Shown: in pieces, positions 18,008 through 62,548 of the stretch
Position numbering within the stretch: the stretch's first letter is position 1
Layout: every line of letters begins with the position of its first letter
Source of the DNA: an uncultured Erysipelotrichaceae bacterium
Lineage (GTDB): Bacteria; Bacillota_I; Bacilli_A; RF39; UBA660
Length of the DNA: 64,000 nt
NCBI GenBank assembly: GCA_902783895.1
Contig: CACZST010000034.1
Location: 23,748 to 87,747, forward strand
Direction of reading: 5' to 3'
Made by a program: the position numbers and the translations under genes
Notes under the pieces: model-generated
Database searches by the model: none
The model's input: only the letters and a program-made list of their open reading frames with translations
What the model was told of the DNA's origin: nothing

Positions 18008-18009
18008 AA

Positions 18010-18215
18010 TTCTAATAAATCGAAGAAAAAGACTAGTAATATAAGTTAATGTATTAAAGAGAGTTAGTGGTTGGTGTGAACTAATATACATTTTTATATG
18101 AATCTACTTTGGAGAGAAGCTAATCACTTCCGGCCTAGCCGTTATTTTAATTAAGATCTATATTAGGATGGTACCGTAATTTATTTACTCCTATATTATA
18201 GGTCTTTTTATTTTC
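18010..18215 (+). promoter_or_regulatory. T-box riboswitch leader of serS, with terminator/antiterminator
   Basis: AGAGAG stem I motif (18058-18063). UCC Ser specifier candidate in cacTTCCggc. Conserved T-box sequence attaGGATGGTACCGtaa (18163-18179). Terminator hairpin cctat-atta-tagg followed by tcttttta. Confidence 0.75.
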
Positions 18216-18244
18216 TTTTGGTTTATTTGGAAAAGAGGGATAAA

Positions 18245-44849: not shown

Positions 44850-45749
44850 CTATTCTTCTTCAGGTTTTTTACTTGAAAGTTCATATGTATCCATAGTAAT
44901 TATAAAGGCTTCTGGATCAATTTTTCTAATACTTTCGGTTGCTAAAAAGTATTCTCTTGTTGGTATTGCTGATATTAATACTTTTTTATGTCTATTTGTA
45001 AAACCACCTTCAGCATTTATAACGGTTACTCCATGATTTAATTTGTTTAAAATAAAGTCTTTAATACTTTCTTCTTTATCGGTTATTATTTCCATTGTTT
45101 TATACTCTGAAATACCAAGTATTACTCTATCACTAACATAACCAACTATGGCTAAAGTAATTATTGAGTATAGGAATGATTGCCATCCGAAGGCAATTGC
45201 ACCAAGCGTTACGATTACTCCTTCTGAGTATAAGTTTGCTTTACTAAAAGGTACTTTAAAGTAAACTGTCATTATTTGTTTTAATATATCACTACCACCT
45301 GAAGTAAAATTGTTTTTAAATATCAGTCCTGTACCAAATCCAGATAAAACTGCACCGGCTAATACTAAAACAATCATTTCAGTATTTCCTAAATCAATAT
45401 AATTTGAAACGTTATCTGTTAATTTAATTAATAATGGGAATAATAATGAACCTAAGATAGAGCCTTTAGTTTTTTCTTTACCAAGAAGAAAATAACTGGC
45501 AATTAACAGCAATACATTTCCAATTAAGATTACTATCCACGGCTGAATATTAAAGTATTTTTCAGTGATGATTGAAAGACCACTAACACCTGAAATAATG
45601 TGATTTTCTTTCATAAAAATATTGAAAGAAAGTGCACAAATTAATACTCCGATGAAAAAGTATATATATCTTTTTAGTTTTTTTGAATTATATACTTCTT
45701 TGATTATTTCTTCGTTGTTTATTTTCTTTTTGGTAAGTTTAAATATCAT
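44850..45749 (-). CDS. YitT-family membrane protein (DUF161 + DUF2179)
   Basis: 299 aa; 5 TM then a soluble C-terminal domain. Confidence 0.65.
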   Translation of the reverse strand: MIFKLTKKKINNEEIIKEVYNSKKLKRYIYFFIGVLICALSFNIFMKENHIISGVSGLSIITEKYFNIQPWIVILIGNVLLLIASYFLLGKEKTKGSILGSLLFPLLIKLTDNVSNYIDLGNTEMIVLVLAGAVLSGFGTGLIFKNNFTSGGSDILKQIMTVYFKVPFSKANLYSEGVIVTLGAIAFGWQSFLYSIITLAIVGYVSDRVILGISEYKTMEIITDKEESIKDFILNKLNHGVTVINAEGGFTNRHKKVLISAIPTREYFLATESIRKIDPEAFIITMDTYELSSKKPEEE

Positions 45750-46844
45750 ATTACATTTCTCCTTAGATTATCATTTATAAATTTATCAAGGTCACCATCT
45801 AATACTTTATTTACATTTACATCTTCTGTATTAGTTCGGTGGTCTTTTACTAAAGAGTATGGATGCATTACATAACTTCTTATTTGTGAGCCAAAATTTA
45901 TATCTTGTTTCTCACCTTGAATTTTTTTCATTTCATCCTCTTTATTTTTTTGCTCTATTTCATATAACTTACTACGTAAAATTTGCATTGCTTTTGCTTT
46001 ATTTTGAACTTGACTACGTTCATTTTGACATGTAACTACAATTCCAGTTGGAAGGTGGGTTATTCTAACAGCACTATCAGTTGTGTTTACTGACTGTCCA
46101 CCAGCTCCACTACTATGGTAAACATCGATTTTTAAATCTTTATCATCAATATCAATTTTTATTGTATCGTCAATAACAGGAGTTACAGTTACGGAAGCAA
46201 ATGAAGTATGTCTTCTGGCCCCAGAATCAAAAGGTGATATTCTTACTAGTCTATGAATACCCTTTTCATTTTTTAAATATCCATAAGCATTTAATCCTTT
46301 AACGATTAATGTAATACTTTTTATACCGGCTTCTAAACCTGGCTGGGTATCAACAACTTCTACTTTATAATTATGTTTTTCACAGTATCTTGAATACATA
46401 CGGTAAAGCATATTGGCCCAATCACAAGCTTCGGTTCCACCAGCCCCAGAATGTATTTCTAAAACTGCATCGTTTTTATCATATTCATTATTAAGTAATA
46501 TTTCGACTTCTACTTTTTCTATTTCTTTCCCAATATTTATACTTTCTTTTTCTAACCATTGTAGACTATTTACATCGTCTGGATCAATTTCTATTGCCAT
46601 TTCTAAATAATCTTTAGTTTCCGAAAGTAAATTTTTAACGTTTTCTAGTGTTTTCTTTTCACTATTTAAAATTGAAATTACTTCTTCACTATGTTTACGG
46701 TCATCCCAAAAATTTGGTAAATTCATTTCTTCTTCAAGTTTTTTTATTTTTTCTTCTTTAGCTTTTGGGTCAAAGTGACCTCCATAATTCATTTATTTTA
46801 TTTAGGCTTTTTTCATATATATTTATTGCTTCTTTTTTTTCCAT
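45746..46844 (-). CDS. prfB: peptide chain release factor 2 with programmed +1 ribosomal frameshift: join(46773..46844, then skip 46772, 45746..46771)
   Basis: ATG at 46844 (AGGGAGG SD) encodes MEKKEAINIYEKSLNKINELWRSL then CTT TGA C (46770-46776) with internal SD GGAGG 3 nt upstream. A +1 shift reads GAC CCA AAA = DPK and continues as ORF-track frame 45746..46792 (…SPFDSGARRHTSF, GGQ in [23 protein letters not shown]). Confidence 0.9.
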
Positions 46845-46962: not shown

Positions 46963-48180
46963 CTAATTATTTATTTTTATCATTTTTCTTGATACAATTA
47001 TTGCTAAACTAATAAATATAATTCCAATTGATGCGATTATTATTGATGCTTTTGCGGAGGTAGCTGGAACTTCAACTATTTGCGGGTTGTCTGTTTTACT
47101 ATTCTTATCATCTTTTATAGTATCTTTTATAATATCTGTTGCATTGGCTTTTTTATCATCTACTTCATCATCTTTTTCATCATCTTTTGGTGCATATAAT
47201 GTATATGGACTTTCTTTAGTACCTTCTCCTTCTAAAGTAGTTTCACTTGATATATAGAAGGCTGGGCGAACGCCTAATGTAGATGTTGCAACATTAAAGT
47301 CAATTACTCCTGTTAAAGATGAATTTGCTGAATCAAGATGAAGGTTATCCTGGGAATAATAAGGATTTGATATTGGATTTAAAAACCATGGAGAGATTTT
47401 TGAATACAAATAATTATGACTTGTTATGTTTTTATGACAAGACTCTTTGGCTTGATAATTTCTAAAGGCTGCAAATCCGTTACATTCAGGGTTTGTGCTT
47501 GCTTTAATATAATCAGTTACATTCATTAAAGCTATTTTGCCTTTCCATTTATATGTAGCTTCCTCATTTAAAGTTTCACTTACTGGAGCATCACTTTTTA
47601 CGTAGTAATAATCTACACTACCTATATTCCAAATATAATCTACTATTATTTTTTTAATATCATCAGATAGGCTATTATACCAAGTTGTATTTAAATATGT
47701 ATTTAAACTTGCCTCTTTATCTGGCAAATTATATAGTTTATCACCTATTCCTTTTGGCATTTGAGTTACATTATTACTGTTTGAATCTAGTGTAGTTGTA
47801 TTACTTCCCCAGACATTACATCCATAATCTGAATTACAATAGTCTTCGGAATTTGTGGATTTTCTATTTTCTTTTGTATCAAAATTGGCAGATGATGAAT
47901 TATATACTGTACCATTAGCGTCATTTTTTACTATTTTCATTTTACCATCTACTTCAATTGATATTATTCTATATAAGCTATTATTTAGTTTTAAGTAATT
48001 ATTTGGACTACCACCTTTATAGATATATCTCCCTTCTTCATCATTATCTATATAAAGCCCATCTCCTGATGTCACTGTATTTAAAACTAGGTTTCTGGAA
48101 GTAATGCTTTGAGCTTTTACTTGTGTATTTAAAGTTAGAGGTATTCCAATTAAACCTAAATAAGTCAAAATATTTTTCAT
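46963..48180 (-). CDS. surface-protein family paralog with VEVPATSA + TM + basic tail C-terminus
   Basis: Start MKNILTYLGLIGIPLTLNTQVKA after AGGAGGA; conserved blocks GDGLYID..GRYIYKGGSPNNYLKL, LPDKEASLNTYLN, KWKGKIALMNVTDYIKAS, RPAFYISSETTLEGEGT. Confidence 0.7.
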   Translation of the reverse strand: MKNILTYLGLIGIPLTLNTQVKAQSITSRNLVLNTVTSGDGLYIDNDEEGRYIYKGGSPNNYLKLNNSLYRIISIEVDGKMKIVKNDANGTVYNSSSANFDTKENRKSTNSEDYCNSDYGCNVWGSNTTTLDSNSNNVTQMPKGIGDKLYNLPDKEASLNTYLNTTWYNSLSDDIKKIIVDYIWNIGSVDYYYVKSDAPVSETLNEEATYKWKGKIALMNVTDYIKASTNPECNGFAAFRNYQAKESCHKNITSHNYLYSKISPWFLNPISNPYYSQDNLHLDSANSSLTGVIDFNVATSTLGVRPAFYISSETTLEGEGTKESPYTLYAPKDDEKDDEVDDKKANATDIIKDTIKDDKNSKTDNPQIVEVPATSAKASIIIASIGIIFISLAIIVSRKMIKINN

Positions 48181-48268
48181 AGGTTTTCCTCCTATTATTA
48201 CTATACCCATAATACTTGAAAAGTTAATTAGAAAATAGCAATTAGATATATAAAAAAAGATATCATTT

Positions 48269-49756
48269 TTATTTACTGATATCCTTCTTTTTAAATACTT
48301 TTAAATATAAGTATCCACTTACTGCAAGTAATATGACTGCACCTACTATTACAAATATTGATGTGAATAATGAAGTTGGTGGTACATCTACTATTTGGGT
48401 AATACTTGATGTTATATTATTTGAATTAGCAGATCCTCCCATATTTGATAAAGTATATGGACTGTTTTCGCTTCCTTCTCCACCAGTTATACTAATAGAT
48501 GAATTTAAATGAACAACTGGTCTTATTGAGAATGAATTATAATATACTGCACCAAAATCTTGGTAAACATATTGTGGGTTTAATCCTTGATTTGAGGCTG
48601 AATACACAAGTTCATTACTGTTATAAACTGGTGTGATTAATAAATAATTATAATCAGTAAATTTGTATGTCTCAGGTGGAATTAAATAATTTGATTTATC
48701 ACAATTATTTTTTAAGGTTGGGTATCTAAATTTTGCATATGTACCATATTTTTCACTTCCATCTACTAATTTGTCATCACTCCAACTATTAGCACATCCT
48801 CCCCAATTATCTTTTTGTGTGCATTCTCCGTTAGTATTAACTAATGTCATCGTTCCACATGTTTTTTCATCATTAGTTGCTTCAAGTACATCTGTTAATG
48901 TTGGCATAGCAACATTACCATTCCATGTATATTTACTTTCTTCTTCATTATTTTCTTTTATAATATTATTAATTTCTGTAAAATAACTATCATAAGTAGG
49001 TTTTAACTCCTCCATTTTTTGCTTTTCTTTTTCCATTTGAGATTTATAATATGTTGAATTAGTACCACTTGGATCATTTTCATAATTTTTTTTATTTGTC
49101 TCATAAAAATCTTTAGCACCCAAGTATCCTACCACTTTTTCTTCATATACTTTATCTTTTAAAGATACACCACCAATATTATAATTGTATTTTACGATTT
49201 GATTTTTGGCATTTTCTGATAGCTTTTTATAATAATCATTATTTAAATAATCATTAATATCTGAGTTATTTTCAACTTTACCTTTTAATTCAAACGTTTT
49301 GTCATATTGATCATAATCTAAGCTATTGGGCCCGCTATAGCCACTAAGACCATTTTCTGTTACACCTGCATAGACACCGTTACTGAAGCTATCTGTTTTA
49401 GCCCAGGCATTACATCCAAATTGGGCATAATCACAGTATCTATTCCCTGTTGGTTTTTGCTGATCAATGTCAAATGTTGCATTATTATCTAGGGTATTTG
49501 ATCTAATTATTTTTAATGTTCCATCTTTTTCGATGGCCATTACTCTCCAAAGTTCATTATTGAATTTGATATAGTTATTTGGATTTGCTCCTTTATAGAC
49601 ATATCTGCCTTCAGTTACTTCATCTTTGTAAAGTCCTTCACCTTCAGTTACTACTTTACTTTTTAAAGTTTCTGAAGCAGTACTTGCGGCGTTTACCTGT
49701 GATATCATAGTAAAAGGTATACTAAATAAGCTTAAAAATAATAAAAATTTTTTCAT
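48269..49756 (-). CDS. surface-protein family paralog (divergent middle) with DVPPTSL + TM + basic tail C-terminus
   Basis: 495 aa; signal peptide MKKFLLFLSLFSIPFTMISQVNA; GEGLYKD..GRYVYKGANPNNYIKFNNELWRV N-terminal block. Confidence 0.7.
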   Translation of the reverse strand: MKKFLLFLSLFSIPFTMISQVNAASTASETLKSKVVTEGEGLYKDEVTEGRYVYKGANPNNYIKFNNELWRVMAIEKDGTLKIIRSNTLDNNATFDIDQQKPTGNRYCDYAQFGCNAWAKTDSFSNGVYAGVTENGLSGYSGPNSLDYDQYDKTFELKGKVENNSDINDYLNNDYYKKLSENAKNQIVKYNYNIGGVSLKDKVYEEKVVGYLGAKDFYETNKKNYENDPSGTNSTYYKSQMEKEKQKMEELKPTYDSYFTEINNIIKENNEEESKYTWNGNVAMPTLTDVLEATNDEKTCGTMTLVNTNGECTQKDNWGGCANSWSDDKLVDGSEKYGTYAKFRYPTLKNNCDKSNYLIPPETYKFTDYNYLLITPVYNSNELVYSASNQGLNPQYVYQDFGAVYYNSFSIRPVVHLNSSISITGGEGSENSPYTLSNMGGSANSNNITSSITQIVDVPPTSLFTSIFVIVGAVILLAVSGYLYLKVFKKKDISK

Positions 49757-49820
49757 TTTTCTCCTCCTATTTTTACTATACCCATTTTAGCAAAAAAAAG
49801 TAATATTTTTGATGGATAAT

Positions 49821-51323
49821 TTACACTTGTTTTGCTTTGTTTTGAAGTTTTTTTATTTGATTTTCAATAAGTAATATTTTAAACTTATTTTCATTAATTT
49901 TAAAGTTTGATTTTTCAATATTTTGCAATAATTTCATTTTTTTATTGTTAAGTAAAAAGTCTTTGCCGATGCTTACTAATTTTGGAAGATAAAATTTTTC
50001 AATACAGGCATTCATAGCAATGAATTCATCACCAACAGTTTTTAAATTAGGTTTATTTATTTCTTTTAACTCTCCATTACATATTAAGAAGGAGTTTCCT
50101 ACTTTGGTTAGGTTTGGAAAATTTATTTTACTAATGTTTGAATTACAATAGATGAAATCATTTCCTACTTCTTTTAAATTTGGTAATGATATTTTTTTCA
50201 TGTTATAGTTATAAGTTAAAAAATCATCTTCTATTTTTTCTAAGTTTGGCATATTAATTTCTTCTAAATATTCACTGTGGTATAAAAATTTACTACCTAT
50301 TTCTTTTAGGTTTTTATTTTCGTAAGAGATTAATCTATTTTGATTATCCAATGTTATTAAAGTTTCACCCTTTTCAGTAATTAACGTTATTAACTTTTTT
50401 TCTTTTGTTTTACTTATATTAATTTTTTTAATATTTTTTAAATTATCTAAAAAAGAATTTTCTGCTTCTTCATTATAAGTATATATTTTTTTATTTTGAA
50501 TGTCTAAGATGAATTCATCAAATAATATATAGGAATCTTTTTTATAAGTGATTACTTTATCACCATCAATTATAATGTTGTTTGGACAGTAAAATATACC
50601 GTTTATTTCAAGGTTATACTTATATAATTTACCGTTTTTATCCTCAATGTATTTTTCTAATCTTAATCCTTCTTCAGGATTTGTTTGGGTAAGACCATAT
50701 GTTGTTTCAAAGGCATACGTAAGTCCTGGAATGATATTTTCTAAATTATTACTAAAAGTTGCGTCTGGATTATCTACTGTATGATTATATCTATTTTTTA
50801 TTGATAATGTTTTATATTTATCTTTTGTAAATTGAATACTGATAACTGATGTACCGTATTCATCTTGTCTTTTTGGATCATTAAAGTTTTCTCTTTTTAT
50901 TTCATTTACGTTTTTTTTAATGGCCCAAAAGACATGGCATCTTTCTAATCGATTACTGTGAAATGAACATAATTCTTCATTTTGAGTAAAATACCTTTTA
51001 AAGCTTTCAAGCTGTTCTTCAGTATGACACTCATAAAAATCATAGCCTGCTTCTTCTAATAATTCTTTTGGGGTTTTATCTGTCTTTGTTTTAGTTATTA
51101 CATTTTCAACTTTACTGAAGATAAATTGTTTGAAGGTATTTGTTACGCCAGCTGAGATGATATCATCATAGAGGTATTTATTTTCTTCGAAATTTTTTTC
51201 TAATATTTTAGGAAGTAATCCTTTAGTTTCTAATATAGTTGAAAAAAGTTCTCGGCAGAGATGCATCATTTTTTCCCCATATTTTTTCTTAATCCATTTT
51301 AAATCATCATTCATATATATCAT
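49821..51323 (-). CDS. cytoplasmic NTD-LRR family protein, copy 1 (conserved roughly 220 aa N-domain plus about 6 BspA-type 23-aa LRRs)
   Basis: 500 aa; no signal peptide; invariant RQDEYGTSVISIQFTKD; repeats of the form FPNLxxVGNxFLxxNxxLKEINKPNL. Confidence 0.7.
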   Translation of the reverse strand: MIYMNDDLKWIKKKYGEKMMHLCRELFSTILETKGLLPKILEKNFEENKYLYDDIISAGVTNTFKQFIFSKVENVITKTKTDKTPKELLEEAGYDFYECHTEEQLESFKRYFTQNEELCSFHSNRLERCHVFWAIKKNVNEIKRENFNDPKRQDEYGTSVISIQFTKDKYKTLSIKNRYNHTVDNPDATFSNNLENIIPGLTYAFETTYGLTQTNPEEGLRLEKYIEDKNGKLYKYNLEINGIFYCPNNIIIDGDKVITYKKDSYILFDEFILDIQNKKIYTYNEEAENSFLDNLKNIKKINISKTKEKKLITLITEKGETLITLDNQNRLISYENKNLKEIGSKFLYHSEYLEEINMPNLEKIEDDFLTYNYNMKKISLPNLKEVGNDFIYCNSNISKINFPNLTKVGNSFLICNGELKEINKPNLKTVGDEFIAMNACIEKFYLPKLVSIGKDFLLNNKKMKLLQNIEKSNFKINENKFKILLIENQIKKLQNKAKQV

Positions 51324-51343
51324 CCTTTATATTCTTTGAATGG

Positions 51344-53110
51344 TTAAACTTGTTTTGGTTTTTCTTCAATATTTTTGTTTGTATTTATAACGGCTAGAAC
51401 AAACCTATAGTCATCTTTTATTATTTTGTATTTACTATTTACTTGAATTTCTTGTTCTTTATTTAATAGTTTTTGCATAAACTGATAAGGAACACTGCTT
51501 AGTTTTGGTAAATTAATACTTTCTAAAACAACATTACAGTATAGGAAACCACTTCCAAAATCTGATAAATTTGGGAAATCAATGTTTCTTATTTCTCTAT
51601 TTTGGAATAGGAAATCTGATCCGACTTTCGTTAAATTTGGAAGATAAACTTCTCTTATTTTTTGATTAGATTTTATAAAGTTATATCCTGCATCTTGTAG
51701 ACATGGGGCATATAGCTGAGTTAATTCTTCATTTTGGCCTAAAAAGTTTCCTTTTATTTCAGTTAATTTTGGAATATTAATATTTCTTAGTTTTTTATCT
51801 GATTGAAGGAAACTTTCACCAGCATAAATTAAATTTGGGAATTTTGCTTCTTCAATTTCATTATTAAAGCCTAAAAACATATCACCAGATACTTGTAAAT
51901 TTGGAAGATTTATATTATTTAATATTTTATTATAGTATATAAAATAATTGCCTACTTTTTGTAAATTAGGGAAATCTATTTCAGTTAATTCTCTATTTTC
52001 TTTTAAGAAGTTATGGCCAATTTCAGTTACATTTTGCATGCTTATATGTTTTACACATTTAGCATTTTCTAGGTAATTATTTGGAACTATTTTAATATTT
52101 TCATCTGTTAACCCAATTATTCTATTTTGTTTATTTAAAATCACTTCAACGATTCTATCTTTTAATTCTATGATTATTTTTTTATTATCATTTTCCTTTT
52201 TTATATCTATTTTTTGAATATCATTTAGTGTATCAACGAATCCGTCATAAGATAAGGGATCATAATTGGTTATTTTTTTATTTTGCAAATCCAAAATATA
52301 ATTTTCAAATATTAAGTAATTTTCTTTGCTGTATTTTTTAACATTTCCATTATCAACTATGACATTGTTTTGGCAGTAATATATACCATCGATAGTAAAA
52401 TTATATCTATAAAATTTTCCGTCTTTGGCTTTTATGTAATTTGGAATTGCAAATTCTTCGTCTTTATTTGTCTGCTTTAAACCATATTTTTTCCCAAAGG
52501 CATCTGTCAGTCCTGGGATGATGTTATCTAGATTATTGGCAAAAGTCGCATCTGGATTATCTACTGTATGATTATATCTATTTTTTATTGACAAAGTATT
52601 ATAATTATCTTTGGTAAATTGGATACTTATAACCGATGTGCCATACTCATCTTGTCTTTGGGGTTTTTCAAAATTCTCTCTTTTTATTTCGTCTACATTT
52701 TTCTTAACTGCAAAGAAGACATAACATCTATTTAGACGTCCCCCTTGAAATGTACATATTGCTTCATCTAAAGCATAATATTTTTTAAAAGACTGGATTT
52801 CTTCTTCAGTTTTACATTCATATAAATCATAGCCAGCTTGATTTAATAATTCCTCTGGGTCTTTATCTGCTTTTATATTTTCATCATTTAAGCTTGCTTT
52901 ATTGTAGATAAAACTTTTAAAAGAATATTTTAAACAATTATTAATAATATCATCATATAAGTTTCTATTTTCATCAAAATTTTCTTCAAATATTTGGGTA
53001 AGTAAACCTTTTTCTTCTAGGATTGTTGGGAAAAGTTCTCGGCAGAGATGCATCATTTTTTCCCCATATTTCTTTTTAATTTTTTTTAAATCTTCATTCA
53101 TTGTTTTCAC
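51344..53110 (-). CDS. cytoplasmic NTD-LRR family protein, copy 2
   Basis: 588 aa; same N-domain, about 10 LRRs; ATG abuts the stop of the small partner ORF. Confidence 0.7.
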   Translation of the reverse strand: MKTMNEDLKKIKKKYGEKMMHLCRELFPTILEEKGLLTQIFEENFDENRNLYDDIINNCLKYSFKSFIYNKASLNDENIKADKDPEELLNQAGYDLYECKTEEEIQSFKKYYALDEAICTFQGGRLNRCYVFFAVKKNVDEIKRENFEKPQRQDEYGTSVISIQFTKDNYNTLSIKNRYNHTVDNPDATFANNLDNIIPGLTDAFGKKYGLKQTNKDEEFAIPNYIKAKDGKFYRYNFTIDGIYYCQNNVIVDNGNVKKYSKENYLIFENYILDLQNKKITNYDPLSYDGFVDTLNDIQKIDIKKENDNKKIIIELKDRIVEVILNKQNRIIGLTDENIKIVPNNYLENAKCVKHISMQNVTEIGHNFLKENRELTEIDFPNLQKVGNYFIYYNKILNNINLPNLQVSGDMFLGFNNEIEEAKFPNLIYAGESFLQSDKKLRNINIPKLTEIKGNFLGQNEELTQLYAPCLQDAGYNFIKSNQKIREVYLPNLTKVGSDFLFQNREIRNIDFPNLSDFGSGFLYCNVVLESINLPKLSSVPYQFMQKLLNKEQEIQVNSKYKIIKDDYRFVLAVINTNKNIEEKPKQV

Positions 53111-53389
53111 CTATCCATAATATCTTTTTAATTTCATTTTTTTAGTTTTGGTTATTACTTCTATCACATCAGCATCATTTTCCTTGACATTTTTACCATA
53201 TTTACCAGATAATGGGCCAAATGATAATGGTATATGTTCATCGAGTAAATATTCATCCATGATTATGGAATCTTCTGATTTAGGATCTTCAACATCATAA
53301 AATTGCATGTTTACGCTATAATCATTATTATTTTCATCTTCTAAAATATAGTTATAATCTTCAATGTTTTTAATTGTTAATTTTTTCAT
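53111..53389 (-). CDS. small partner protein of the NTD-LRR array (copy B)
   Basis: AAGGAGA SD then ATG at 53389; MKKLTIKNIEDYNYILEDENNNDYSVNMQFYDVEDP...LSFGPLSGKYG...KRYYG; paralogous to 58598..58876. Confidence 0.65.
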   Translation of the reverse strand: MKKLTIKNIEDYNYILEDENNNDYSVNMQFYDVEDPKSEDSIIMDEYLLDEHIPLSFGPLSGKYGKNVKENDADVIEVITKTKKMKLKRYYG

Positions 53390-53390
53390 T

Positions 53391-55043
53391 TTATCTCCTT
53401 TTTCTTTTGTTTTTATTTTTATCTTCAAATTTTAATATTAATAATTTTGCTTTAGTATCTTTTTCTATTTTATAATTTGTATTTCTTTTATATTTATCTC
53501 TTAGAAAACCGAATGGGAATACTGTATTTTTCCCCGGCTTTAGTTTTAATGTAAGACTTTCGATAGTTTGATTATGATCGAGAAAGTCATTACCAATAAT
53601 TTCAAGATTTGGGAAATATAGATTTTTAATGTTTTGATTGTTTTTTAAAAAATTACTACCAACTTGAGTTAAATTTGGGATATTTATGCTTTCTAAATTT
53701 TGATTATATCCTAGAAAATAATCTCCTATTATTCTGACATTTGGCAGGCTTATTTCTTTTAATTGGTTTTTGCAACCTAGAAAATAGTCTCCAATTATTT
53801 CAACATTTGGCATATTTATTTTTTCAATATTTTCATTTTGCATATTGAAGTTATTACCTATTTTTTTTACATTTGGTAAATTAATCTCTTTTAAGCTAGA
53901 GGCTAGTGTTAGAAAGCTATTTCCTATTGTTTGTACATTTGGTAAATTTAAAAACCTTATTTTTCTGGCAAAAGGTAAAAAACTATCACCAATTTCTTTT
54001 ATATTTTCATTACTATAACCTACTATTTGGTTTAAATTGTCTAAATATAAATATGACTCTTCATTATCTTTAGTTTTAAACTTAATTATTTTAATATCAT
54101 TTTCTTTGATTATATCAATATTTTTTATATTAAATAAAATGTTTTTAAAGCTATCTCGTCTTCTTTCATTATACTGATAGATTATTTTCTTTTTTAAATC
54201 AAGTATTAGGTCATCGAAAACTATGAAAGAATCTTTATCAAATTTGTGAATTCCAGTTTTTCTACTATAAGTACTTCCTTTATCAATTATTATATTATTT
54301 GGGCAGTAATAAATACTTAGGTGTTTGAAATTGTATTTATAGTATCTTCCATCATTTGCTTTGACATATTTTGGTAGGTTAAAAGGTTCATCTGAATCAT
54401 TCTCATAAATACAGTATGTTTGTTTAAAAGCGTTTGTTAGCCCTGGAATTATGTTTTCTAAATCGTTACCAAAGGTTGCATCTGGATTTTCGACGGTATG
54501 GTTATATCTGTTTTTTATTGATAGTGTATTTGACATATCTTTGGTAAATTGAATACTTATTACAGATGTACCATATTCATCTTGTCTTTGGGGATTAGTG
54601 AAATTCTCTCTTTTTATTTGATTTACGTTTTTTTTAACGGCAAAGAAGACATGACAATTATTTAATCTTCCTCCATCAAAGGTACATAATTCTTCGTCTT
54701 CTTTAAAGTATTTTTTAAATTTTTGGATTTCCTCTTCCGTTTTACATTCATAAAAATCATAGCCTGCTTCTTCTAATAATTCTTTTGGGGTTTTATCTGT
54801 ATCTATTTTTATATTATCTTTGATATCTGTTTTACTGAAAATGAAGTTTTTAAATGAAGTTTTTATCCCATTTTCTATGATATCATTATATAAAAATTTA
54901 TTTTCTGCAAAATTTTCCATTAGTATTTTAGGAAGTAATCCTTTTTCTTCCAATATTGTTGGGAAAAGTTCACGGCATAAATGCATCATTTTTTCGCCAT
55001 ATTTCTTTTTTATTATTTTTAAATCTTCATTCAATTTTATCAC
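53391..55043 (-). CDS. cytoplasmic NTD-LRR family protein, copy 3
   Basis: 550 aa; start overlaps the stop of copy 4 (ATGA). Confidence 0.7.
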   Translation of the reverse strand: MIKLNEDLKIIKKKYGEKMMHLCRELFPTILEEKGLLPKILMENFAENKFLYNDIIENGIKTSFKNFIFSKTDIKDNIKIDTDKTPKELLEEAGYDFYECKTEEEIQKFKKYFKEDEELCTFDGGRLNNCHVFFAVKKNVNQIKRENFTNPQRQDEYGTSVISIQFTKDMSNTLSIKNRYNHTVENPDATFGNDLENIIPGLTNAFKQTYCIYENDSDEPFNLPKYVKANDGRYYKYNFKHLSIYYCPNNIIIDKGSTYSRKTGIHKFDKDSFIVFDDLILDLKKKIIYQYNERRRDSFKNILFNIKNIDIIKENDIKIIKFKTKDNEESYLYLDNLNQIVGYSNENIKEIGDSFLPFARKIRFLNLPNVQTIGNSFLTLASSLKEINLPNVKKIGNNFNMQNENIEKINMPNVEIIGDYFLGCKNQLKEISLPNVRIIGDYFLGYNQNLESINIPNLTQVGSNFLKNNQNIKNLYFPNLEIIGNDFLDHNQTIESLTLKLKPGKNTVFPFGFLRDKYKRNTNYKIEKDTKAKLLILKFEDKNKNKRKRR

Positions 55044-56872
55044 CCCACTTTTTTGGGAATATTGGTTTCATTTGTATTTTGATTATTATCAATAAGAATT
55101 AATTCAAAATTACTATCTCCCCTTTGTAATTTATATTTCGGACTTATTTTTATTGATTCATATTTTTTATACAGATTATATAAAAATAAATATGGAACTT
55201 CTTTTAGATTTGGTAAGTATACTTCATTTATTTTTTCATTACTATAAAAGCTACCGCTGCCCGCAATTTCTAGATTTGGTAGTGATAAATTTGTAAGTTC
55301 ATTATTTGACTGCATAAAATAAGAACCAACTCTTTTTATATTAGGCATATTTATTTTTTCCATTATTTCATTATAACGTAAACTATTATGACCAATTGAA
55401 ATTATGTTTGGAAGGCTTAATTCTTTTAAGCCTTGGTTATACATAAGAAATCCGCTACCTGCAGTTTCTAGATTTGGAGCGATAAATGTATCAATGATTC
55501 GGTTACTATTTAAAAAATAATTACCAACTTCTTTTAAATTTGGTAAATTTAAATACTGCAATTTTTTATTAAATTGCATAAATGAATTTCCAACAGTTTC
55601 TAGATTAGGTAAATTTACTTCATTAACTGATTCATTAAAATATAAAAAGTTATCTCCAACTGTTTTTAAATTAGGAAAATCAATTTCTTTTAAATAAAAA
55701 TTTCGAGTAAGAAATCTATTCCTAATGTTTTCAAGATTAGGAAGCTCAAGTTTCTTTATATATTTATTTTCGGTTAAAAAATTATCATTTGCTTCTTTGA
55801 TATTTTCATCTTTTAAGTATATCATTCTACCGAGTTTATCTAAGGTTATTTCTATAACTTCATTATTTTCTTTGGTTATAGTTATTGTTTTAGTTTCTTT
55901 ATCTTTGGTTATATCAATATTTTTAATATTTTGCACTCTTTCTAAAAAAGATTCTTTTATGTTTTTATCATATGTTTTAATTGTTTTTGATTTTAAATCT
56001 ATAATAAAATTATCGAATAGTAAATAAGATTCTTTATCAAATTTCTTTACTTGATCATTATCAATTATTATATTATCTTGGCAGTAAAATATATCATCAA
56101 TAACAAGGTTATATCTATATAATTTTCCATCATTTGCTTTTACATAGTTTTCTAAATTTAGACAATCCGATTTTGTAGTTGGATGGGTAGCATTATAGCC
56201 AAAATCATACACTATATCTTTTTCTTCCTCTTTTAAAGATGATTGAATTAATCCATATGTTTTTTCAAAGGCATGTGTTAAACCTGGAATAATATTATCA
56301 AGATTATTACTGAATGTTGCATCTGGATTGTCGGCTTTGTGATTATATCTATTTTTTATTGATAGGCTATGATAAACATCTTTGGTAAATTGAATACTTA
56401 TAACGGATGTACCGTATTCATCTTGTCTTTGGGGAATACTAAAATTTTCCCTCTTTATTTCATTTACATTTTTTTTAACGGCCCAAAAGACATAACATCT
56501 ATCTAATCTTTTTTCTTCAAAGGTACATAATTCTTCACCCTCAGCATAATATTTTTTAAAAGATTGGATTTCTTCTTCAGTTTTACATTCATAAAAATTG
56601 TATCCTGCTTCTTCTAATAATTCTTTTGGAGTTTTATTTGTTTCAATTGTTTTATTTTGAATGTTTGCTTTACTATAAATAAAATTTCTAAATGAATATA
56701 TCATATTTTGGTCAATGATATCAAAATATAGTTGATGACTTATTGCGAAATTTTCTTTCAGTATTTTTGGTAATAGTCCTTTTTTTTCAATTATTGTGGG
56801 GAAATTTTTTCGGCATAAATGCATCATTTTTTCGCCGAATTTTTTCTTTATCCATTTTAAATCCTCGTTCAT
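55040..56872 (-). CDS. cytoplasmic NTD-LRR family protein, copy 4
   Basis: 610 aa, about 11 LRRs. Confidence 0.7.
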   Translation of the reverse strand: MNEDLKWIKKKFGEKMMHLCRKNFPTIIEKKGLLPKILKENFAISHQLYFDIIDQNMIYSFRNFIYSKANIQNKTIETNKTPKELLEEAGYNFYECKTEEEIQSFKKYYAEGEELCTFEEKRLDRCYVFWAVKKNVNEIKRENFSIPQRQDEYGTSVISIQFTKDVYHSLSIKNRYNHKADNPDATFSNNLDNIIPGLTHAFEKTYGLIQSSLKEEEKDIVYDFGYNATHPTTKSDCLNLENYVKANDGKLYRYNLVIDDIFYCQDNIIIDNDQVKKFDKESYLLFDNFIIDLKSKTIKTYDKNIKESFLERVQNIKNIDITKDKETKTITITKENNEVIEITLDKLGRMIYLKDENIKEANDNFLTENKYIKKLELPNLENIRNRFLTRNFYLKEIDFPNLKTVGDNFLYFNESVNEVNLPNLETVGNSFMQFNKKLQYLNLPNLKEVGNYFLNSNRIIDTFIAPNLETAGSGFLMYNQGLKELSLPNIISIGHNSLRYNEIMEKINMPNIKRVGSYFMQSNNELTNLSLPNLEIAGSGSFYSNEKINEVYLPNLKEVPYLFLYNLYKKYESIKISPKYKLQRGDSNFELILIDNNQNTNETNIPKKVG

Positions 56873-56884
56873 TTTTACCTCCGA

Positions 56885-58588
56885 TTATATTTTCTTTTCA
56901 TATTCGTTATTTTCTTTCTTGTTTTTAATTTCTTTATCAATAACCATTAATTCAAAATTGTAGTTTCTTCTTTCTAGTTTATATTCATGACTTATATTTA
57001 TTGTCCTTTTTGTTTCTGATAATTCTTGCAAGAATCCAAAACCAATTTTTCTTATTTTAGGTAAATAAATTTTGTTTATTTTTTTATTTTGGCTTAAACT
57101 TTCTGTACCTATTACTTGAACATTTGGCAAGATAAGTTCTTTTAAATTTTCATTTGCATAAAGAAAATATGCGCCAACTTCTTTTAGATTTGGTAAATTA
57201 ATACTACTTAATTGTTTATTACTTTCAAGAAAATATGAACCTATTATTTGAATGTTTGGCATGTAAATTTCTTTAATATTTTTATTTTGTAGTAAACAAA
57301 AATTATCTATCTTTTTAGCACTTGGTAAATTTAATGATTTTAACTTTACATTTGTGATTAGAAATTCTTCACCAATTGTTTGAACATTTGGTAAATTTAT
57401 TTTTACCAAATCAAAATTATTATTTAAAAAATTATTACCTATTCTTATGACATTTGGCAGATTTATTTCTTTTAAATGTTCATTTTCAATCAAAAAATTA
57501 TCATCAAGCTCTTTAATGTTATCATTTTTATATCCAATAAAACGATTTTGTTTATCAATTGTGATTGTTGATTTAGTCTTATCTTTTAAGGTTATAACGA
57601 TATCTTTTGTTTCTTTATTTTTAATAATATCAATATTTTTGATATCTTTATATAATTCGGAAAAAACTCTTTCTAAAAAAGGATCATATGATTTTAATAT
57701 TTTATTTTTTAAATCTAGTATGAAATTATCAAATACTATATATGATTCTTTTGAAAATTCAACGACTTCACCACATTCGATTATAACGTTATTTGGACAA
57801 TAATATATATTATTGTGACACATATTATATTTGTATAATTTTCCATTTCCAGCTCTTACATAATTATCTAAATTAAAACGATTATTTTTATTTTCTTGAA
57901 TCATATTTAAAAAAATAAATCCGTGTTTACTTTTTTCTTTTTTAGATATATCATTATTTTGAATTAAATTATATGTTTTTTCAAAGGCATATGTTAAACC
58001 TGGAATAATATTGTCTAAATTGTTTCCAAAAGTGGCATCAGGATTATCAACCATATGATTATATCTATTTTTAATTGATAATGTTTGGTGACTATCTTTT
58101 GTAAATTGAATACTTATTACAGATGTACCATACTCATCTTGTCTTTGGGGGTTATGAAAGTTTTCCCTTTTTATTTCATCTACATTTTTCTTAACCGCCC
58201 AGAAGACATAGCATTTTTTTAATCTGTTTTCTTCGAAAGTACATAACTCTTCGCTTTCTTTATAATATTTTTTAAAGGCATTGATTTCTTCTTCGGTTTT
58301 GCATTCATAAAAATCATAACCAGCTTCTTCTAGTAATTCTTTCGGAGTTTTTTCTGTTTGCGTGATTGTAAAATTTATTTGGGCTTTACTATATATGAAA
58401 GCTTTAAAGGATTGGACCATTTGGGCATTTATTATATCATCACATAACTGGTGACTTTCAGCAAAATTTTCTTCTAATAATTTTGGAAGCAATCCTTTTG
58501 TTTCTAAAATTGTTGGGAAGATTTTTTTACATAAATGGCTCATTTTTTCGCCATATTTTCTTTTTATTTCTTTTAAATCTTCGTTCAT
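56885..58588 (-). CDS. cytoplasmic NTD-LRR family protein, copy 5
   Basis: 567 aa, about 9 LRRs. Confidence 0.7.
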   Translation of the reverse strand: MNEDLKEIKRKYGEKMSHLCKKIFPTILETKGLLPKLLEENFAESHQLCDDIINAQMVQSFKAFIYSKAQINFTITQTEKTPKELLEEAGYDFYECKTEEEINAFKKYYKESEELCTFEENRLKKCYVFWAVKKNVDEIKRENFHNPQRQDEYGTSVISIQFTKDSHQTLSIKNRYNHMVDNPDATFGNNLDNIIPGLTYAFEKTYNLIQNNDISKKEKSKHGFIFLNMIQENKNNRFNLDNYVRAGNGKLYKYNMCHNNIYYCPNNVIIECGEVVEFSKESYIVFDNFILDLKNKILKSYDPFLERVFSELYKDIKNIDIIKNKETKDIVITLKDKTKSTITIDKQNRFIGYKNDNIKELDDNFLIENEHLKEINLPNVIRIGNNFLNNNFDLVKINLPNVQTIGEEFLITNVKLKSLNLPSAKKIDNFCLLQNKNIKEIYMPNIQIIGSYFLESNKQLSSINLPNLKEVGAYFLYANENLKELILPNVQVIGTESLSQNKKINKIYLPKIRKIGFGFLQELSETKRTINISHEYKLERRNYNFELMVIDKEIKNKKENNEYEKKI

Positions 58589-58597
58589 TGCTTTCTC

Positions 58598-58876
58598 CTA
58601 TCCGTAATATCTTTTTAGTATTATTTCTTTATCTTCAGTTATTACTTTTATAACATCTTTGTCTCCTTCAGTAACTTCTCTTCCATATTTACCTGATAAT
58701 GGGCCGAATGAAAGGGGAACATTTTCTTCTAATAAATATTCATTCATTAATAAGTAATTGTTTTCTTTTGGGGTTTCTACTGAATAAAATTCTAAATTTA
58801 AGTTATATAGATTTTTGTTTTCATCTTCTAAAATATAATTATATCCATCTTTTTTTATTATTTTTAATGTTTTCAT
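58598..58876 (-). CDS. small partner protein of the NTD-LRR array (copy A)
   Basis: AAGGTGA SD then ATG at 58876; MKTLKIIKKDGYNYILEDENKNLYNLNLEFYSVETP...LSFGPLSGKYG...KRYYG. Confidence 0.65.
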   Translation of the reverse strand: MKTLKIIKKDGYNYILEDENKNLYNLNLEFYSVETPKENNYLLMNEYLLEENVPLSFGPLSGKYGREVTEGDKDVIKVITEDKEIILKRYYG

Positions 58877-59157
58877 TTTTTCACCTTTTCTAATATAAAA
58901 TATTTGCATCCATAAGCACAGCTATCTTTTATATATGTGTGGACTTTTTTAAAATCATTTATTTTATTAAATAAGTAGTTTTTAGGTTTACAAAAACCTT
59001 TTAGTCTTAATTTTCCATATGACCAATCACCTAATATATAATCGTAATCTTTAAAATAATCGGTTATAATTTTTTCAATTTCTTCTTCTTGAAAAGCATC
59101 TTTATAATTTTCTAATAATTTATAGTGATTTTCAATTAACTCTATATTATTTTCCAT
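58873..59157 (-). CDS. yutD: YutD-family protein (DUF1027)
   Basis: Start MENNIELIE after GGGTGA; ILGDWSYGKLRLKGF...CAYGCKYFILEKV matches the YutD pattern; overlaps the start of small partner A by 4 nt. Confidence 0.7.
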   Translation of the reverse strand: MENNIELIENHYKLLENYKDAFQEEEIEKIITDYFKDYDYILGDWSYGKLRLKGFCKPKNYLFNKINDFKKVHTYIKDSCAYGCKYFILEKVKK

Positions 59158-59182
59158 AGCATCACCCGCTTTAATTATAACA

Positions 59183-59944
59183 TTATTCGGATGGAACAGC
59201 AATATTAGGGGTTACTTCAGATTTACCATTTACATAGTAATTTGGCACTGTACCAGTAACTATTTTGATACCTACTGGTATTTCTTTGGATATTTTGATG
59301 TCTTCACTTAAAAAAGGAAGGATCATTTTCTCATTTACTTTTATTTCTACATACACTTGAATTACAGCATTGTTTATTCCATAGTTTTTAATATTTGTTT
59401 TTATATTACTACTTACATTCCCAATCAGAATTATTTTAATCGGTATTTTAGGTCCAACTGATGATAAAACATTATTGTTAAAGGCAGCACCCATACTAAA
59501 ACGATATATTATTCCCTTTTCTAAATCATTTTTATTATAGTCATTAAATATATATTTTTTATACTTTAAATTATCAATATTTCCTGATTGGATATTCTTT
59601 ATTTCTTGCTGGATATCAGTTGTCGTTTGGGTTAATAATTTATTTATTATATTTGAATTATAATCAATTGATTTTATTTCACCGTTACTATCGTTAGTTA
59701 CTTTAAATAACTCTTTTTCGGTTATTTTATTTGATATATTTTCTTTAACAGCTTCATTTATGATTATATTTGATATTTTTTTTGCTTCTGATTTTGAGTA
59801 TGAAAATACAATGGGACCAATTTGATTACTTAAATGTTTAATCATTAATACTACACTTAAAGCAATTATTAATAATGTGATTATTATAATTTGAAATTTA
59901 TTTAACTTAATTTTTATTTTTTTCTTTAATTTAGCTTTTTTCAT
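59183..59944 (-). CDS. yunB: sporulation protein YunB
   Basis: 253 aa; N-terminal TM; ISNIIINEAVKENISN region resembles the YunB family signature (from memory). Confidence 0.6.
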   Translation of the reverse strand: MKKAKLKKKIKIKLNKFQIIIITLLIIALSVVLMIKHLSNQIGPIVFSYSKSEAKKISNIIINEAVKENISNKITEKELFKVTNDSNGEIKSIDYNSNIINKLLTQTTTDIQQEIKNIQSGNIDNLKYKKYIFNDYNKNDLEKGIIYRFSMGAAFNNNVLSSVGPKIPIKIILIGNVSSNIKTNIKNYGINNAVIQVYVEIKVNEKMILPFLSEDIKISKEIPVGIKIVTGTVPNYYVNGKSEVTPNIAVPSE

Positions 59945-59981: not shown

Positions 59982-61304
59982 TTAAGCTGTTTTACGATAT
60001 TTAAATTTATATGTTACATCAAGTTTTTTATCTTCTCTGTAAGCAAAATCTGGGAGATCCATTTTAACTTTTTCTTCAAATTCATCAAGTGGTAATGGTT
60101 CTTTTAAAACTTTTAAAGATAATATTTCATATACTTCTCTATATCTTGTGACAGTTCTTGTTTCTTCACTACGATAAATTTCATTAGAACCATTTACTTT
60201 ACTCTCATCTTCCCATGATGAGAAACTACCATATGTTGCGGTATCTTCATCCTTTAAGTTTAAACCTACTGGAGCATAAGAATATAACATACTATATTTT
60301 CTTTTTTGACCATTATACCAACGCCATTGTTTATCTCTATATCTGTATAATTTGGCGGGATCTGGTTCTTGCATATTATATTTTGTTTGATCTACTTCCT
60401 CTGGATTAACATATTGACCACTTTTATAATAAACTTTTTTGCCATTTTTATCTTCATAATAATATCTATATCCATCTACTGATTGAATTTCACGGTATGA
60501 TTTAGCTTCTGGAGAATTTTGTGAATAATCTGTCCAGTCAGTGTATACAGATACTTGTTCATCTTTGTTTGCATATCCATCTGGCATTTCAGATGAATAT
60601 TCCGAATAATCGCCTTCAATATCATACCAGTTCCACATTAAATCTTGATATCTGTATTGAATTTTATCTTCAGTTTCAATATCAATTATTTTACCTTCTT
60701 TTGGAACTATTGGTAGTGTATCTTCATCTTTTGGAAGATATACTCCATATTTAGATTCTTTATCAGATATTTGGTCCTGGGTATAGTACTCTGACCATGC
60801 GGTATTATTTATTTCTTTTTCATAATAGTTATAGTAAGGAATAACATCTATTATCGCGTGACTTGATGGATATGCAGAAGTTTCATTACTCCAATCTCCA
60901 TATCTTATGTTTGTAGAACATTCTTTGCATCCTCTTACATCTAAAGTATAAAGATAAGTTTCTTTGTATTTCGTTACTTTTACAGTACCAGAGCATCTAA
61001 TATCGTTGGTTTGTGAACTTCTTAAGAATCCATCATATAATTTATCAATGTGAACTATAGTGTTTTCACCTTCTATTTCTGGTAATTCTTCTCTATCCTT
61101 TAAGTAATTTAATGCGGATTGTTCGATAGCTTTATATATTTTATCACAAGTGTTATTTTGAACCATTGTATATATGATTAATCCAATTATAATTAAGGGA
61201 ATAACTGTACCAAAAAGGAAGAAACACGCTAAAAGTGGTTTCTTATTTTCAAATGATTGATTTACGACATTTCCTGATTTATCCACATATGTAGGTCTTT
61301 TCAT
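59982..61304 (-). CDS. membrane-anchored Tyr/Trp/acid-rich hypothetical protein with internal (Y)RYxDxxWxWY repeats
   Basis: 440 aa; single N-terminal TM; repeats IQYRYQDLMWNWYDIEGDY / LYRYRDKQWRWYNGQKRKY. Confidence 0.5.
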   Translation of the reverse strand: MKRPTYVDKSGNVVNQSFENKKPLLACFFLFGTVIPLIIIGLIIYTMVQNNTCDKIYKAIEQSALNYLKDREELPEIEGENTIVHIDKLYDGFLRSSQTNDIRCSGTVKVTKYKETYLYTLDVRGCKECSTNIRYGDWSNETSAYPSSHAIIDVIPYYNYYEKEINNTAWSEYYTQDQISDKESKYGVYLPKDEDTLPIVPKEGKIIDIETEDKIQYRYQDLMWNWYDIEGDYSEYSSEMPDGYANKDEQVSVYTDWTDYSQNSPEAKSYREIQSVDGYRYYYEDKNGKKVYYKSGQYVNPEEVDQTKYNMQEPDPAKLYRYRDKQWRWYNGQKRKYSMLYSYAPVGLNLKDEDTATYGSFSSWEDESKVNGSNEIYRSEETRTVTRYREVYEILSLKVLKEPLPLDEFEEKVKMDLPDFAYREDKKLDVTYKFKYRKTA

Positions 61305-61420: not shown

Positions 61421-62548
61421 TTAAATCCTTTTATTTTTTGTCATTTTTTTCGTAATTATTACAGCTAAAGATATAAATATAATTCCAATAGATGCGATTA
61501 TTATAGACATCTGAGCGGATGTGGATGGTACTTCTACTAATTGCCTGTTATCTATATCGACTTCATTATTATTTTCTTCATCTTTTGTTTCTTCAACATA
61601 TTTTGAAACTGTATATGGATTAGTCTCTGTACCTTCTCCATTTAGTGTAGTTTCAGAGGATAGGTAGAATGCGGGACGGACATACATATTAATCCATGTG
61701 TGTTGATAACCTAAATATCCTCGACCAGTTGTAATACTTGAATTATATCTATTTGCATTCTCGGAGTAGGAAGAAATCGTCCATTCACTATTCTTAGGAT
61801 ATAAATAATTATGCGTTTCACTATTATTGTAACACGATGAATTTCCATTGGCATAGTAATAATCTTTTATACTTATGCAAGCACTATTATTAGAACCTTT
61901 AATATAATCTATAGCGCTAATCAAAGCTACTTTACCTTTCCATTTATATGCTGTTTCTTCTTTTACACTTTCTTTTAAATCTTCTTGATTATAATTTATT
62001 ACTCCTACACCCCAATATTTTTCCTTAATGTATTCTTTAATATTATCACTTAATCCGTTATAAAAATCATTATTTAAATATGTATTTAATGTTGACTCCT
62101 TTTCTGGAAGATTCTTTAAGTTCCCTCCTATCTCCCATGACATTTGGATTACTTTGTTTCCACTCTCATCTAACATAGTCTCATTACTTCCCCAGACTTT
62201 GCAGCCAAGTGAACCAGTTGAATAGCAAAAATCATCACCAGCCTTCGATGGTCTTGAATCACCCTTGTCCCAAGGCGTTTCCCCAATACTATCTTGTTTT
62301 ACTACTTTTATAGTTCCATCTTTTTCTACTGATATTATTCTGTAAAGGTCATCACCTAATTTAATATAGTTATTTGGATTCCCACCCCTATAAATATATC
62401 TTCCATCTATAGTGGAATCTACATATAAACCATCTCCTGACGTTACTACATTTTTCTTTAAGATATCTGCAGTTTTTTCCATAGCTTTTACTGGATAAAA
62501 AGATATACTTAAAAGAATTACTGAAAGTGTAAAAAATAATTTTTTCAT
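61421..62548 (-). CDS. surface-protein family paralog (intact reference copy) with VEVPSTSA + TM + basic tail
   Basis: 375 aa; signal peptide MKKLFFTLSVILLSISFYPVKA; all conserved family blocks present. Confidence 0.75.
   Translation of the reverse strand: MKKLFFTLSVILLSISFYPVKAMEKTADILKKNVVTSGDGLYVDSTIDGRYIYRGGNPNNYIKLGDDLYRIISVEKDGTIKVVKQDSIGETPWDKGDSRPSKAGDDFCYSTGSLGCKVWGSNETMLDESGNKVIQMSWEIGGNLKNLPEKESTLNTYLNNDFYNGLSDNIKEYIKEKYWGVGVINYNQEDLKESVKEETAYKWKGKVALISAIDYIKGSNNSACISIKDYYYANGNSSCYNNSETHNYLYPKNSEWTISSYSENANRYNSSITTGRGYLGYQHTWINMYVRPAFYLSSETTLNGEGTETNPYTVSKYVEETKDEENNNEVDIDNRQLVEVPSTSAQMSIIIASIGIIFISLAVIITKKMTKNKRI

Follow-up and report, generated by a model that had tools for sequence, protein, structure and literature searches.

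What could be the role of a tightly packed array of paralogous genes whose products combine a conserved N-terminal domain with a variable block of leucine-rich repeats (LRRs), and what is the role of the small gene that accompanies them in two copies? This question is raised by positions 49821-58876 of a 64,000-nt stretch of contig CACZST010000034.1 from assembly GCA_902783895.1 (contig positions 23,748-87,747). The whole stretch is called the window hereafter, and all coordinates are window positions unless another locus is named. Seven co-directional, tightly packed open reading frames (ORFs) on the minus strand encode five LRR paralogues (L1-L5) and two partners of 92 aa each (s1 and s2), in the order s-L-L-L-s-L-L (s2-L5-L4-L3-s1-L2-L1) when read in the direction of transcription. 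The ORF list confirmed these genes and their coordinates as reported in a preliminary description of the same DNA, which had been made from its letters alone. The favoured explanation, held with a probability of about 0.4, is a two-component module of an uncultured clade of gut Bacilli, namely a cytoplasmic binding repertoire with a constant head domain and a shared small cofactor.

Domain structure and conservation

L1 to L5 can be aligned along their full length, with the paralogues being approximately 50-56% identical, and consist of three parts: a head of about 215 aa, a beta-hairpin linker of about 120 aa and a solenoid of 6 to 10 BspA-type LRRs. Regarding the five copies, the identity was 68-76% in the head (first 216 alignment columns), 39-49% in the middle part (next 136 columns) and 34-44% in the LRRs. 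The alignment corroborated the conserved N-terminal domain of the preliminary description: the 17-mer RQDEYGTSVISIQFTKD is invariant in the five copies, and the block SIKNRYNH..(D/E)NPDATF and five Cys positions are conserved. Among 150 representatives of clusters at 50% identity, the head showed an identity of 55-68% to that of L2. The head residues conserved in at least 95% of these representatives were C23, C99 and C119; R24, R125, R144, R152 and R178; E17, E116, D154 and D187; Y156 and Y179; and S159, S162, Q164, N177, N180 and T189.

AlphaFold2 (AF2) models of L2 were calculated from a 67-sequence alignment for residues 1-340 and 1-218, each with a mean predicted local distance difference test score (pLDDT) of 85. 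In these models the head comprises an N-terminal bundle of five helices (approximately residues 1-75), followed by a small alpha/beta subdomain with four strands (residues 94-99, 129-136, 160-166 and 173-176), whose long loops bear most of the invariant residues. The linker is modelled as beta-hairpins running into the LRR solenoid. The invariant Arg, Asp, Tyr, Ser and Asn residues and three Cys, all of them located in loops, resemble a putative catalytic site or a binding site for a ligand, a metal or a nucleic acid.

The ratio of nonsynonymous to synonymous substitution rates (dN/dS) among the paralogues of the window was 0.18 in the head, 0.38 in the linker and 0.43 in the LRRs, whereas dS was approximately 1.1-1.4 and equal in all three regions. 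The head is thus under strong purifying selection; because dS does not differ between the regions, its conservation reflects selection and not gene conversion. The five copies are old and diverged.

Regarding the C-terminal repeats, the assignment as BspA/LRR_5-like holds, LRR_5 (PF13306) being detected in L1-L4 with 36-49 bits at a gathering score of 27.7 bits; L5 scored below this value, yet it aligns throughout. The repeats have a period of 22 residues instead of the 23 estimated previously, and each copy has about 6 to 10 units, where 6 to 11 had been given. The closest solved relative of the solenoid is a Bacteroides LRR protein, PDB entry 4fs7 (E 6.6e-19).

Similarity searches

The head did not yield a match in Pfam, NCBIfam, PADLOC or PHROGs, and the scan of all seven proteins returned LRR_5 alone. 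PDB sequence profiles, when searched with the full-length protein, the head or the partner, gave LRR matches or noise only, and a Foldseek search of the head model against the PDB yielded nothing at E <1e-3; none of the fold matches was to a P-loop NTPase. Accordingly, the earlier remark that the N-terminal domain was not recognised as any named family was borne out in sequence and in fold, and a confident match to a secretion, anchoring or housekeeping domain was not found. Regarding specific systems, NACHT, NB-ARC and STAND NTPase domains were not detected in the seven proteins with Pfam or NCBIfam, none of the families of PADLOC-DB 2.0 matched any of the seven proteins at E values up to 1, no LXG/WXG100 domain was found in the array proteins by Pfam, and no toxin or antitoxin family matched in Pfam, NCBIfam or PADLOC. 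Literature searches for LRR families of these lineages turned up nothing relevant. The LRR part is of a known kind, but no description of the head, the linker, the partner or their linkage was found in the databases and publications searched. As neither the head domain nor the small partner is represented in Pfam, NCBIfam or the PDB, both would qualify as new domain families.

Absence of a leader and cellular location

The absence of a signal peptide, as noted in the preliminary description, extends throughout the family. The highest 19-residue Kyte-Doolittle mean in the five copies was 1.07, which is too low for a signal peptide or a transmembrane (TM) helix, and the N-termini are charged helices. 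The head begins at residue 1-5 in 269 of 270 family proteins, the lone exception carrying a 15-residue hydrophilic extension, and orthologues bearing signal peptides were not found among the 270. An overlooked N-terminal extension, previously called impossible for copies 2 and 3, is impossible in all five, because the first possible start of each ORF lies within three codons of the conserved MNEDL. No lipobox, TM segment or secretion domain was found in the L proteins; Pfam detected only LRR families in the five copies and in 80 diverse representatives, hence none of the cell-envelope anchors looked for (LPXTG, GW, SLH, CWB, LysM, TM). No gene for a secretion system or exporter recurs beside the arrays at 73 loci. 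Each L protein contains 6-9 Cys; exported proteins of Gram-positive anaerobes tend to avoid this residue. Given the family-wide absence of leader, TM segment and anchor, the invariant Cys and the lack of a linked exporter gene, the L proteins are most likely cytoplasmic. If so, they would join the small number of LRR repertoires located inside bacterial cells and could serve to examine how LRR specificity modules are used without an NTPase switch.

An alternative is that the L proteins are BspA-like adhesins exported by a non-classical route, their LRRs binding to the host, to mucus or to microbes, with the head as export or anchor module and the partner as export chaperone or anchor. This would agree with the nature of the repeat, since LRR_5 is that of the BspA surface adhesin and the closest solved relative is the Bacteroides protein mentioned above, with the expansion of the family in host-associated gut bacteria of small genome size, and with the position of the array among genes for membrane-anchored DUF6273 proteins in this window. 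It is opposed by the 270 proteins without signal peptide, the missing TM segments and anchor domains, the invariant Cys in the head and the lack of a secretion-system gene recurring beside the arrays; moreover, there was no LXG/WXG match, and the partner is beta-rich, unlike the helical chaperones of the type VII secretion system. We consider export of this kind unlikely; if it did occur, the proteins would point to an unknown export route.

The BspA-type LRR proteins (PF13306; e.g., Tannerella forsythia BspA and 4fs7) resemble the L proteins in their C-terminal LRR_5 solenoid, but the latter lack signal peptide, lipobox, TM segment and anchor and instead have the undescribed head, the hairpin linker and a linked partner gene. 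Listeria internalins likewise form tandem arrays of LRR paralogues in which the N-terminal part is conserved and the number of LRRs varies. They possess, however, Sec signal peptides, another class of LRR with a helical cap, and LPXTG or GW anchors, none of which were found in the L proteins.

The small partner

The partners s1 and s2 are 61% identical across 92 residues, and 58% identical when the longer ORFs are aligned. A search with a single partner sequence yielded four clusters only, which is due to the limitation of the word index; a hidden Markov model (HMM) derived from these was then applied to the fetched loci. When all ORFs at the 73 loci were clustered, the partner was the only recurrent neighbour, directly adjoining the family genes in 32 loci, whereas the next most common neighbour family, an ABC transporter, was found in 10. 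The small protein is thus a genuine and widespread conserved companion of the family. A profile search extended it to 69 clusters, none of which bears a Pfam domain or a name.

In the alignment of 32 partner sequences only Y14 and the final R-x-Y-G-stop are invariant. Of the two motifs noticed previously, the C-terminal KRYYG thus stands in the generalized form R-x-Y-G, but SFGPLSGKYG is not constant, being variable or deleted in some members. No relative of the partner was found in the PDB by sequence profile. The S1_2 (OB-fold) profile gave weak matches to 4 of the 32 partners, with a best E of 0.004 and all below gathering.

Usually the genes are arranged as L(n)-s, so that the small one stands at the end of the array and abuts or overlaps the last L gene; s-L and L-s-L were also seen. 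The view that the partner heads a duplicated module (partner plus three and partner plus two LRR genes) was not upheld by the 72 other loci, where the partner normally comes after the last LRR gene; heading of the sub-arrays is a trait of this species. An old duplication of s-L-L pairs was likewise rejected, the five paralogues being roughly equidistant.

The usual order, together with the conservation of head and partner while the LRRs vary, could be understood if the head were a toxic enzyme and the small protein an immunity protein or antitoxin serving all paralogous heads. Polymorphic toxin/immunity pairs similarly consist of a large gene followed by a small conserved one. In known polymorphic toxins, however, the toxin domain is C-terminal and variable, which is the reverse of the L proteins, in which the variable part is the LRR block and the C-terminus was of the LRR type wherever a module was detected among the 80 representatives. 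There are also several large genes per small one, two L genes follow the last partner in this window, and the partner is adjacent in about 60% of the complete arrays, which weakens this explanation further. Since no toxin or antitoxin family was matched either, we regard a toxin-inhibitor pair as very unlikely.

The invariant terminal Arg-x-Tyr-Gly of the partner resembles the aromatic-Gly ends of modifiers of the ATG8/ATG12 type. A novel cytoplasmic receptor system can be imagined on this basis, in which the LRR repertoire would survey foreign or otherwise variable macromolecules, the Cys- and Arg-rich head would be a new enzyme fold acting on or through the partner, and the terminal tail would serve as a conjugation or docking handle, i.e. 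an NTPase-free LRR pathway of innate immunity or tagging. An hhalign comparison of the partner with ubiquitin gave a probability of 0.1%, and E1/E2-type genes were not found beside the arrays at the 73 loci. Such a system is considered quite improbable.

Several aberrant partners were observed. In Candidatus Coprovivens (loci L035 and L041; protein P0333) the partner is lengthened by about 75 aa at its N-terminus, has no central SFG...YG loop and is located 278 nt past the L gene. A metagenomic protein of 165 aa (P0331) is a chimera of the first 88 head residues with the small partner, and at locus L008 (positions 17771-18343 of that locus) a partner has lost its stop codon and is lengthened to 190 aa. 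The latter two degenerate forms suggest ongoing decay and recombination in the arrays.

Distribution of the family

A word-indexed search yielded 2654 clusters at 90% identity, and an exhaustive HMM search at least 1179 representatives at 50% identity, 671 of them below 1e-30. Taking one genome per species, 72 loci were recovered, every one of them from metagenome-assembled genomes (MAGs) of uncultured gut Bacilli; the source hosts were human, rabbit, chicken, goat and others, and the lineages included Candidatus Coprovivens, Coprosoma, 'Clostridium sp. CAG:609' and 'uncultured Tenericutes'. The number of tandem genes per locus ranged from 1 to about 13-14 (the overlapping loci L008 and L025, and L012 and L014, for example, lie on single contigs). 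Regarding C-terminal modules, the Pfam scan of the 80 representatives detected LRR_5 in 49 and LRR_8 in three, the remainder having no significant match in this region. A head fused to a C-terminal module other than LRRs, for which a profile search had been proposed, was thus not detected among them. No relatives were found in IMG/VR viral contigs (by pattern scan), in phage records or on plasmids (by tblastn).

These bacteria are abundant yet uncultured gut inhabitants of humans, rabbits, chickens and ruminants, and the family proteins are annotated merely as 'leucine-rich repeat protein'. As the sole complete genome of the clade in the sample comprises 1.46 Mb, arrays of up to about 14 genes of approximately 1.7 kb represent a notable share of very small genomes.

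Assembly, strain variation and array dynamics

Four further, independent assemblies contain this array as well. Together with the DNA identity between copies of 65-82% and the high dS values, this excludes an assembly artefact, and a collapse of the array to a single gene was not seen in the other assemblies. In assembly ERZ28615022 the shared genes are 100% identical, and an extra L3'-s1-L2 unit is present, resulting in the order s2-L5-L4-L3-s1-L2-L3'-s1-L2-L1. L3' consists of codons 1-81 of L1 joined to the rest of L3 (ENA ERZ28615022 scaffold_199, loci L074/L075; L074:10076-11716) and bears the mark of unequal crossing-over between L1 and L3 within their conserved head-coding DNA. It follows that the five-gene order is the parental one, that arrays grow and shrink via the conserved head DNA, and that heads are swapped in the process. 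Collapse of the window during assembly was also considered and is unlikely, as the 7-gene variant with the L1/L3 chimera derives from the 5-gene order. The comparison of array sizes that the preliminary description had suggested thus revealed differences even between near-identical assemblies. Its suggestion of a contingency locus holds in so far as the copy number varies, by unequal crossover, but not in the simple-repeat sense: no run of A or of T reaches 9 nt, and none of G or of C reaches 6 nt, within 49701-59300.

In comparison with a sister strain (98.3-99.6% identity), the L genes showed 37 nonsynonymous and 39 synonymous codon changes, spread over all domains and not concentrated in the LRRs, whereas 5 nonsynonymous and 21 synonymous changes were found in six flanking housekeeping genes. 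Direct repeats were recorded among the three DUF6273 genes that bracket the array. The one with a product of 495 aa is absent from strain GCA_949878465.1; this part of the chromosome is thus variable in its surface proteins as well.

These strain differences bear on the role in immunity that had been proposed for the array, in which the L proteins would be anti-phage innate-immune sensors, with the LRRs sensing a phage component, the head acting as effector and the partner as inhibitor or co-sensor, in an NLR-like manner but without an NTPase. This is a specific biological version of the favoured explanation. The architecture itself, i.e. a constant head with diversified LRRs, leaderless and amplified in tandem, is as proposed; the high proportion of nonsynonymous changes, the different copy numbers of near-identical strains and the variable flanks with one DUF6273 gene present or absent are also in line with it. 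None of the tests supported the function, however. PADLOC and PHROGs yielded no match, the surroundings are those of the core chromosome, recurrent defence or mobile-element neighbours are absent from the 73 loci, and relatives on phages, plasmids and viral contigs were not found. Known defence systems do not resemble arrays with as many as about 14 paralogues in a small genome. The domain-wide dN/dS of the LRR region is 0.43, and the strain differences show no concentration in the LRRs. An immune function is hence regarded as doubtful. NLR/STAND proteins (Avs, bNACHT and eukaryotic NLRs) share with the L proteins the combination of a constant signalling or effector part with a diversified repeat sensor, and a cytoplasmic location if that of the L proteins is as argued above. 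The L proteins differ from them in having no NTPase and no PADLOC match, in the order of head and LRRs, with the head first, and in the lack of recurrent defence neighbours at the 73 loci.

Favoured interpretation

According to the favoured explanation, the LRR solenoid of each paralogue would bind a different target, and the constant head would carry out the same biochemical act in all paralogues, be it catalysis or the binding of a ligand, a metal or a nucleic acid. The small protein would be a cofactor common to all heads (regulator, adaptor or substrate), which may dock via its invariant C-terminal tail. A shared-cofactor role would fit a protein that is conserved like the head, unlike the LRRs, and occurs once per array. 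Unequal crossing-over in the conserved head-coding DNA would let the arrays gain or lose genes and reshuffle their heads.

A comparable logic is known from the NEL ubiquitin ligases of the IpaH/SspH type and from YopM, in which an LRR specificity module is combined with a constant domain with a conserved Cys. The likeness is one of logic only; the domain order of the L proteins is reversed, and a NEL domain was not detected by Pfam. Genes for a type III secretion system were not seen in the window or the related loci, although no specific search for them was made.

Several points weigh against the favoured explanation. BspA-type LRRs are classically those of surface adhesins, and expansions of such size are typical of host-interaction surface families. 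About 40% of the arrays with both ends in view have no adjacent partner, which is thus not obligatory in cis. To call the head an enzyme would be to follow its conservation pattern, the fold searches having been empty; these covered the PDB, and a structural relative outside it could exist. The domain anatomy, the pattern of selection, the missing leader, the distribution of the family, the linkage of the partner gene and the recombination event are shown; the cytoplasmic location, an activity of the head, its contact with the partner and the diversity of targets are inferred.

Array layout and genomic context

The features of the array and its surroundings are listed in Table 1. The spacing between the genes of the array is 1-20 nt, or they overlap, and a Shine-Dalgarno sequence is present for every gene. 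Most likely, L1 and L2 start at the internal ATGs given in the table. For L3, the alternative TTG start aligns with the Met of the other copies. The ATG of s1 is located 1 nt past the L3 stop (TAA-A-ATG), as previously described, and its stop 9 nt ahead of the L2 ATG; the junction of L4 and L3 at 55040-55043, however, reads GTGA, i.e. a GTG start over a TGA stop, and not ATGA. Terminators were not seen inside the array, the promoter and terminator scan being uninformative in such AT-rich DNA.

Table 1. Features of the array and of its surroundings in the window
Feature	Position	Strand	Description	Basis or remark
L1	49821-51323	minus	Head, linker and ~6 LRR units; ORF of 500 aa, 497 aa from probable ATG 51314	LRR_5 E 5.7e-9; head HMM 9e-128; AAGGA Shine-Dalgarno before ATG 51314; 497 aa called in other assemblies
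L2	51344-53110	minus	~9-10 LRR units; 585 aa from probable ATG 53101	Shine-Dalgarno before ATG 53101; P0001 99% identical, likewise 585 aa
L2, head	52457-53101	minus		AF2, pLDDT 85
L2, beta-hairpin linker	~52091-52456	minus		AF2, pLDDT 85
L2, LRR units and C-terminal cap	51344-52090	minus		LRR_5 above gathering score
s1	53111-53389	minus	92 aa from ATG, ends KRYYG	Perfect Shine-Dalgarno
L3	53391-55043	minus	~7 LRR units; 550 aa from GTG, or 547 aa from TTG 55034	GTG overlaps L4 stop (GTGA)
L4	55040-56872	minus	610 aa; ~9-10 LRR units	~20-aa insertion past head
L5	56885-58588	minus	567 aa; ~7-8 LRR units	LRR_5 sub-threshold; homologous throughout by alignment
s2	58598-58876	minus	92 aa	ATG overlaps yutD stop (ATGA 58873-58876)
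yutD	58873-59202			Overlaps s2
yunB	59183-59944			Overlaps yutD
DUF6273 protein	46963-48210	minus	N-terminal signal-like segment, C-terminal TM anchor	Paralogue flanking the array
DUF6273 protein	48269-49756	minus	N-terminal signal-like segment, C-terminal TM anchor	Paralogue flanking the array
DUF6273 protein	61421-62548	minus	N-terminal signal-like segment, C-terminal TM anchor	Paralogue flanking the array
440-aa protein	59982-61304	minus	One N-terminal TM segment	No Pfam/NCBIfam family
Fic/DOC-domain protein	23074-24153	minus		Between polC and polA
prfB	45746-46792		348-aa ORF
ORF, 270 aa	38781-39593	plus		No Pfam match
ORF, 286 aa	39604-40464	plus		No Pfam match

The window is part of the core chromosome and encodes penicillin-binding proteins, PolA, PolC, RNase R, pyruvate kinase, SerRS and DivIC, as well as YabG, FtsEX, YitT, the prfB product, YutD and YunB. 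Because the ATG of s2 overlaps the stop of yutD, the array in this species is translationally coupled to the upstream genes yunB and yutD, and it may be co-transcribed with this sporulation operon. The linkage to yunB-yutD did not recur at the other fetched loci. Regarding 24 non-redundant regions upstream of arrays in other genomes, a TATAAT box was found in 18, several of them with a good -35 element, whereas -10 boxes of the sigmaE or sigmaK type were found in 0-1. The TATAAT boxes would point to vegetative expression of the arrays. No Rfam riboswitch or leader was found beside the arrays.

The position directly downstream of the sporulation gene yunB, with yabG nearby, could indicate that the L proteins are spore-coat or exosporium proteins produced in the mother cell, which would explain the missing leader; the Cys-containing head would be anchored in the coat and the LRRs exposed on the spore surface. 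Coupling to yutD is seen in this species, but the neighbours differ in other genomes, and the upstream boxes are of the sigmaA type. This explanation was downgraded, and there is a very slight chance at most that it applies.

Additional observations were made in the window. The 440-aa protein encoded beside yunB is rich in Tyr, Trp, Glu and Lys, and its position next to yunB is conserved in sister strains. Two adjacent ORFs of 270 and 286 aa are located on the plus strand, and the gene for the Fic/DOC-domain protein lies in housekeeping surroundings. The gene prfB appears as an ORF without its first codons, which by eye is consistent with the usual programmed +1 frameshift.

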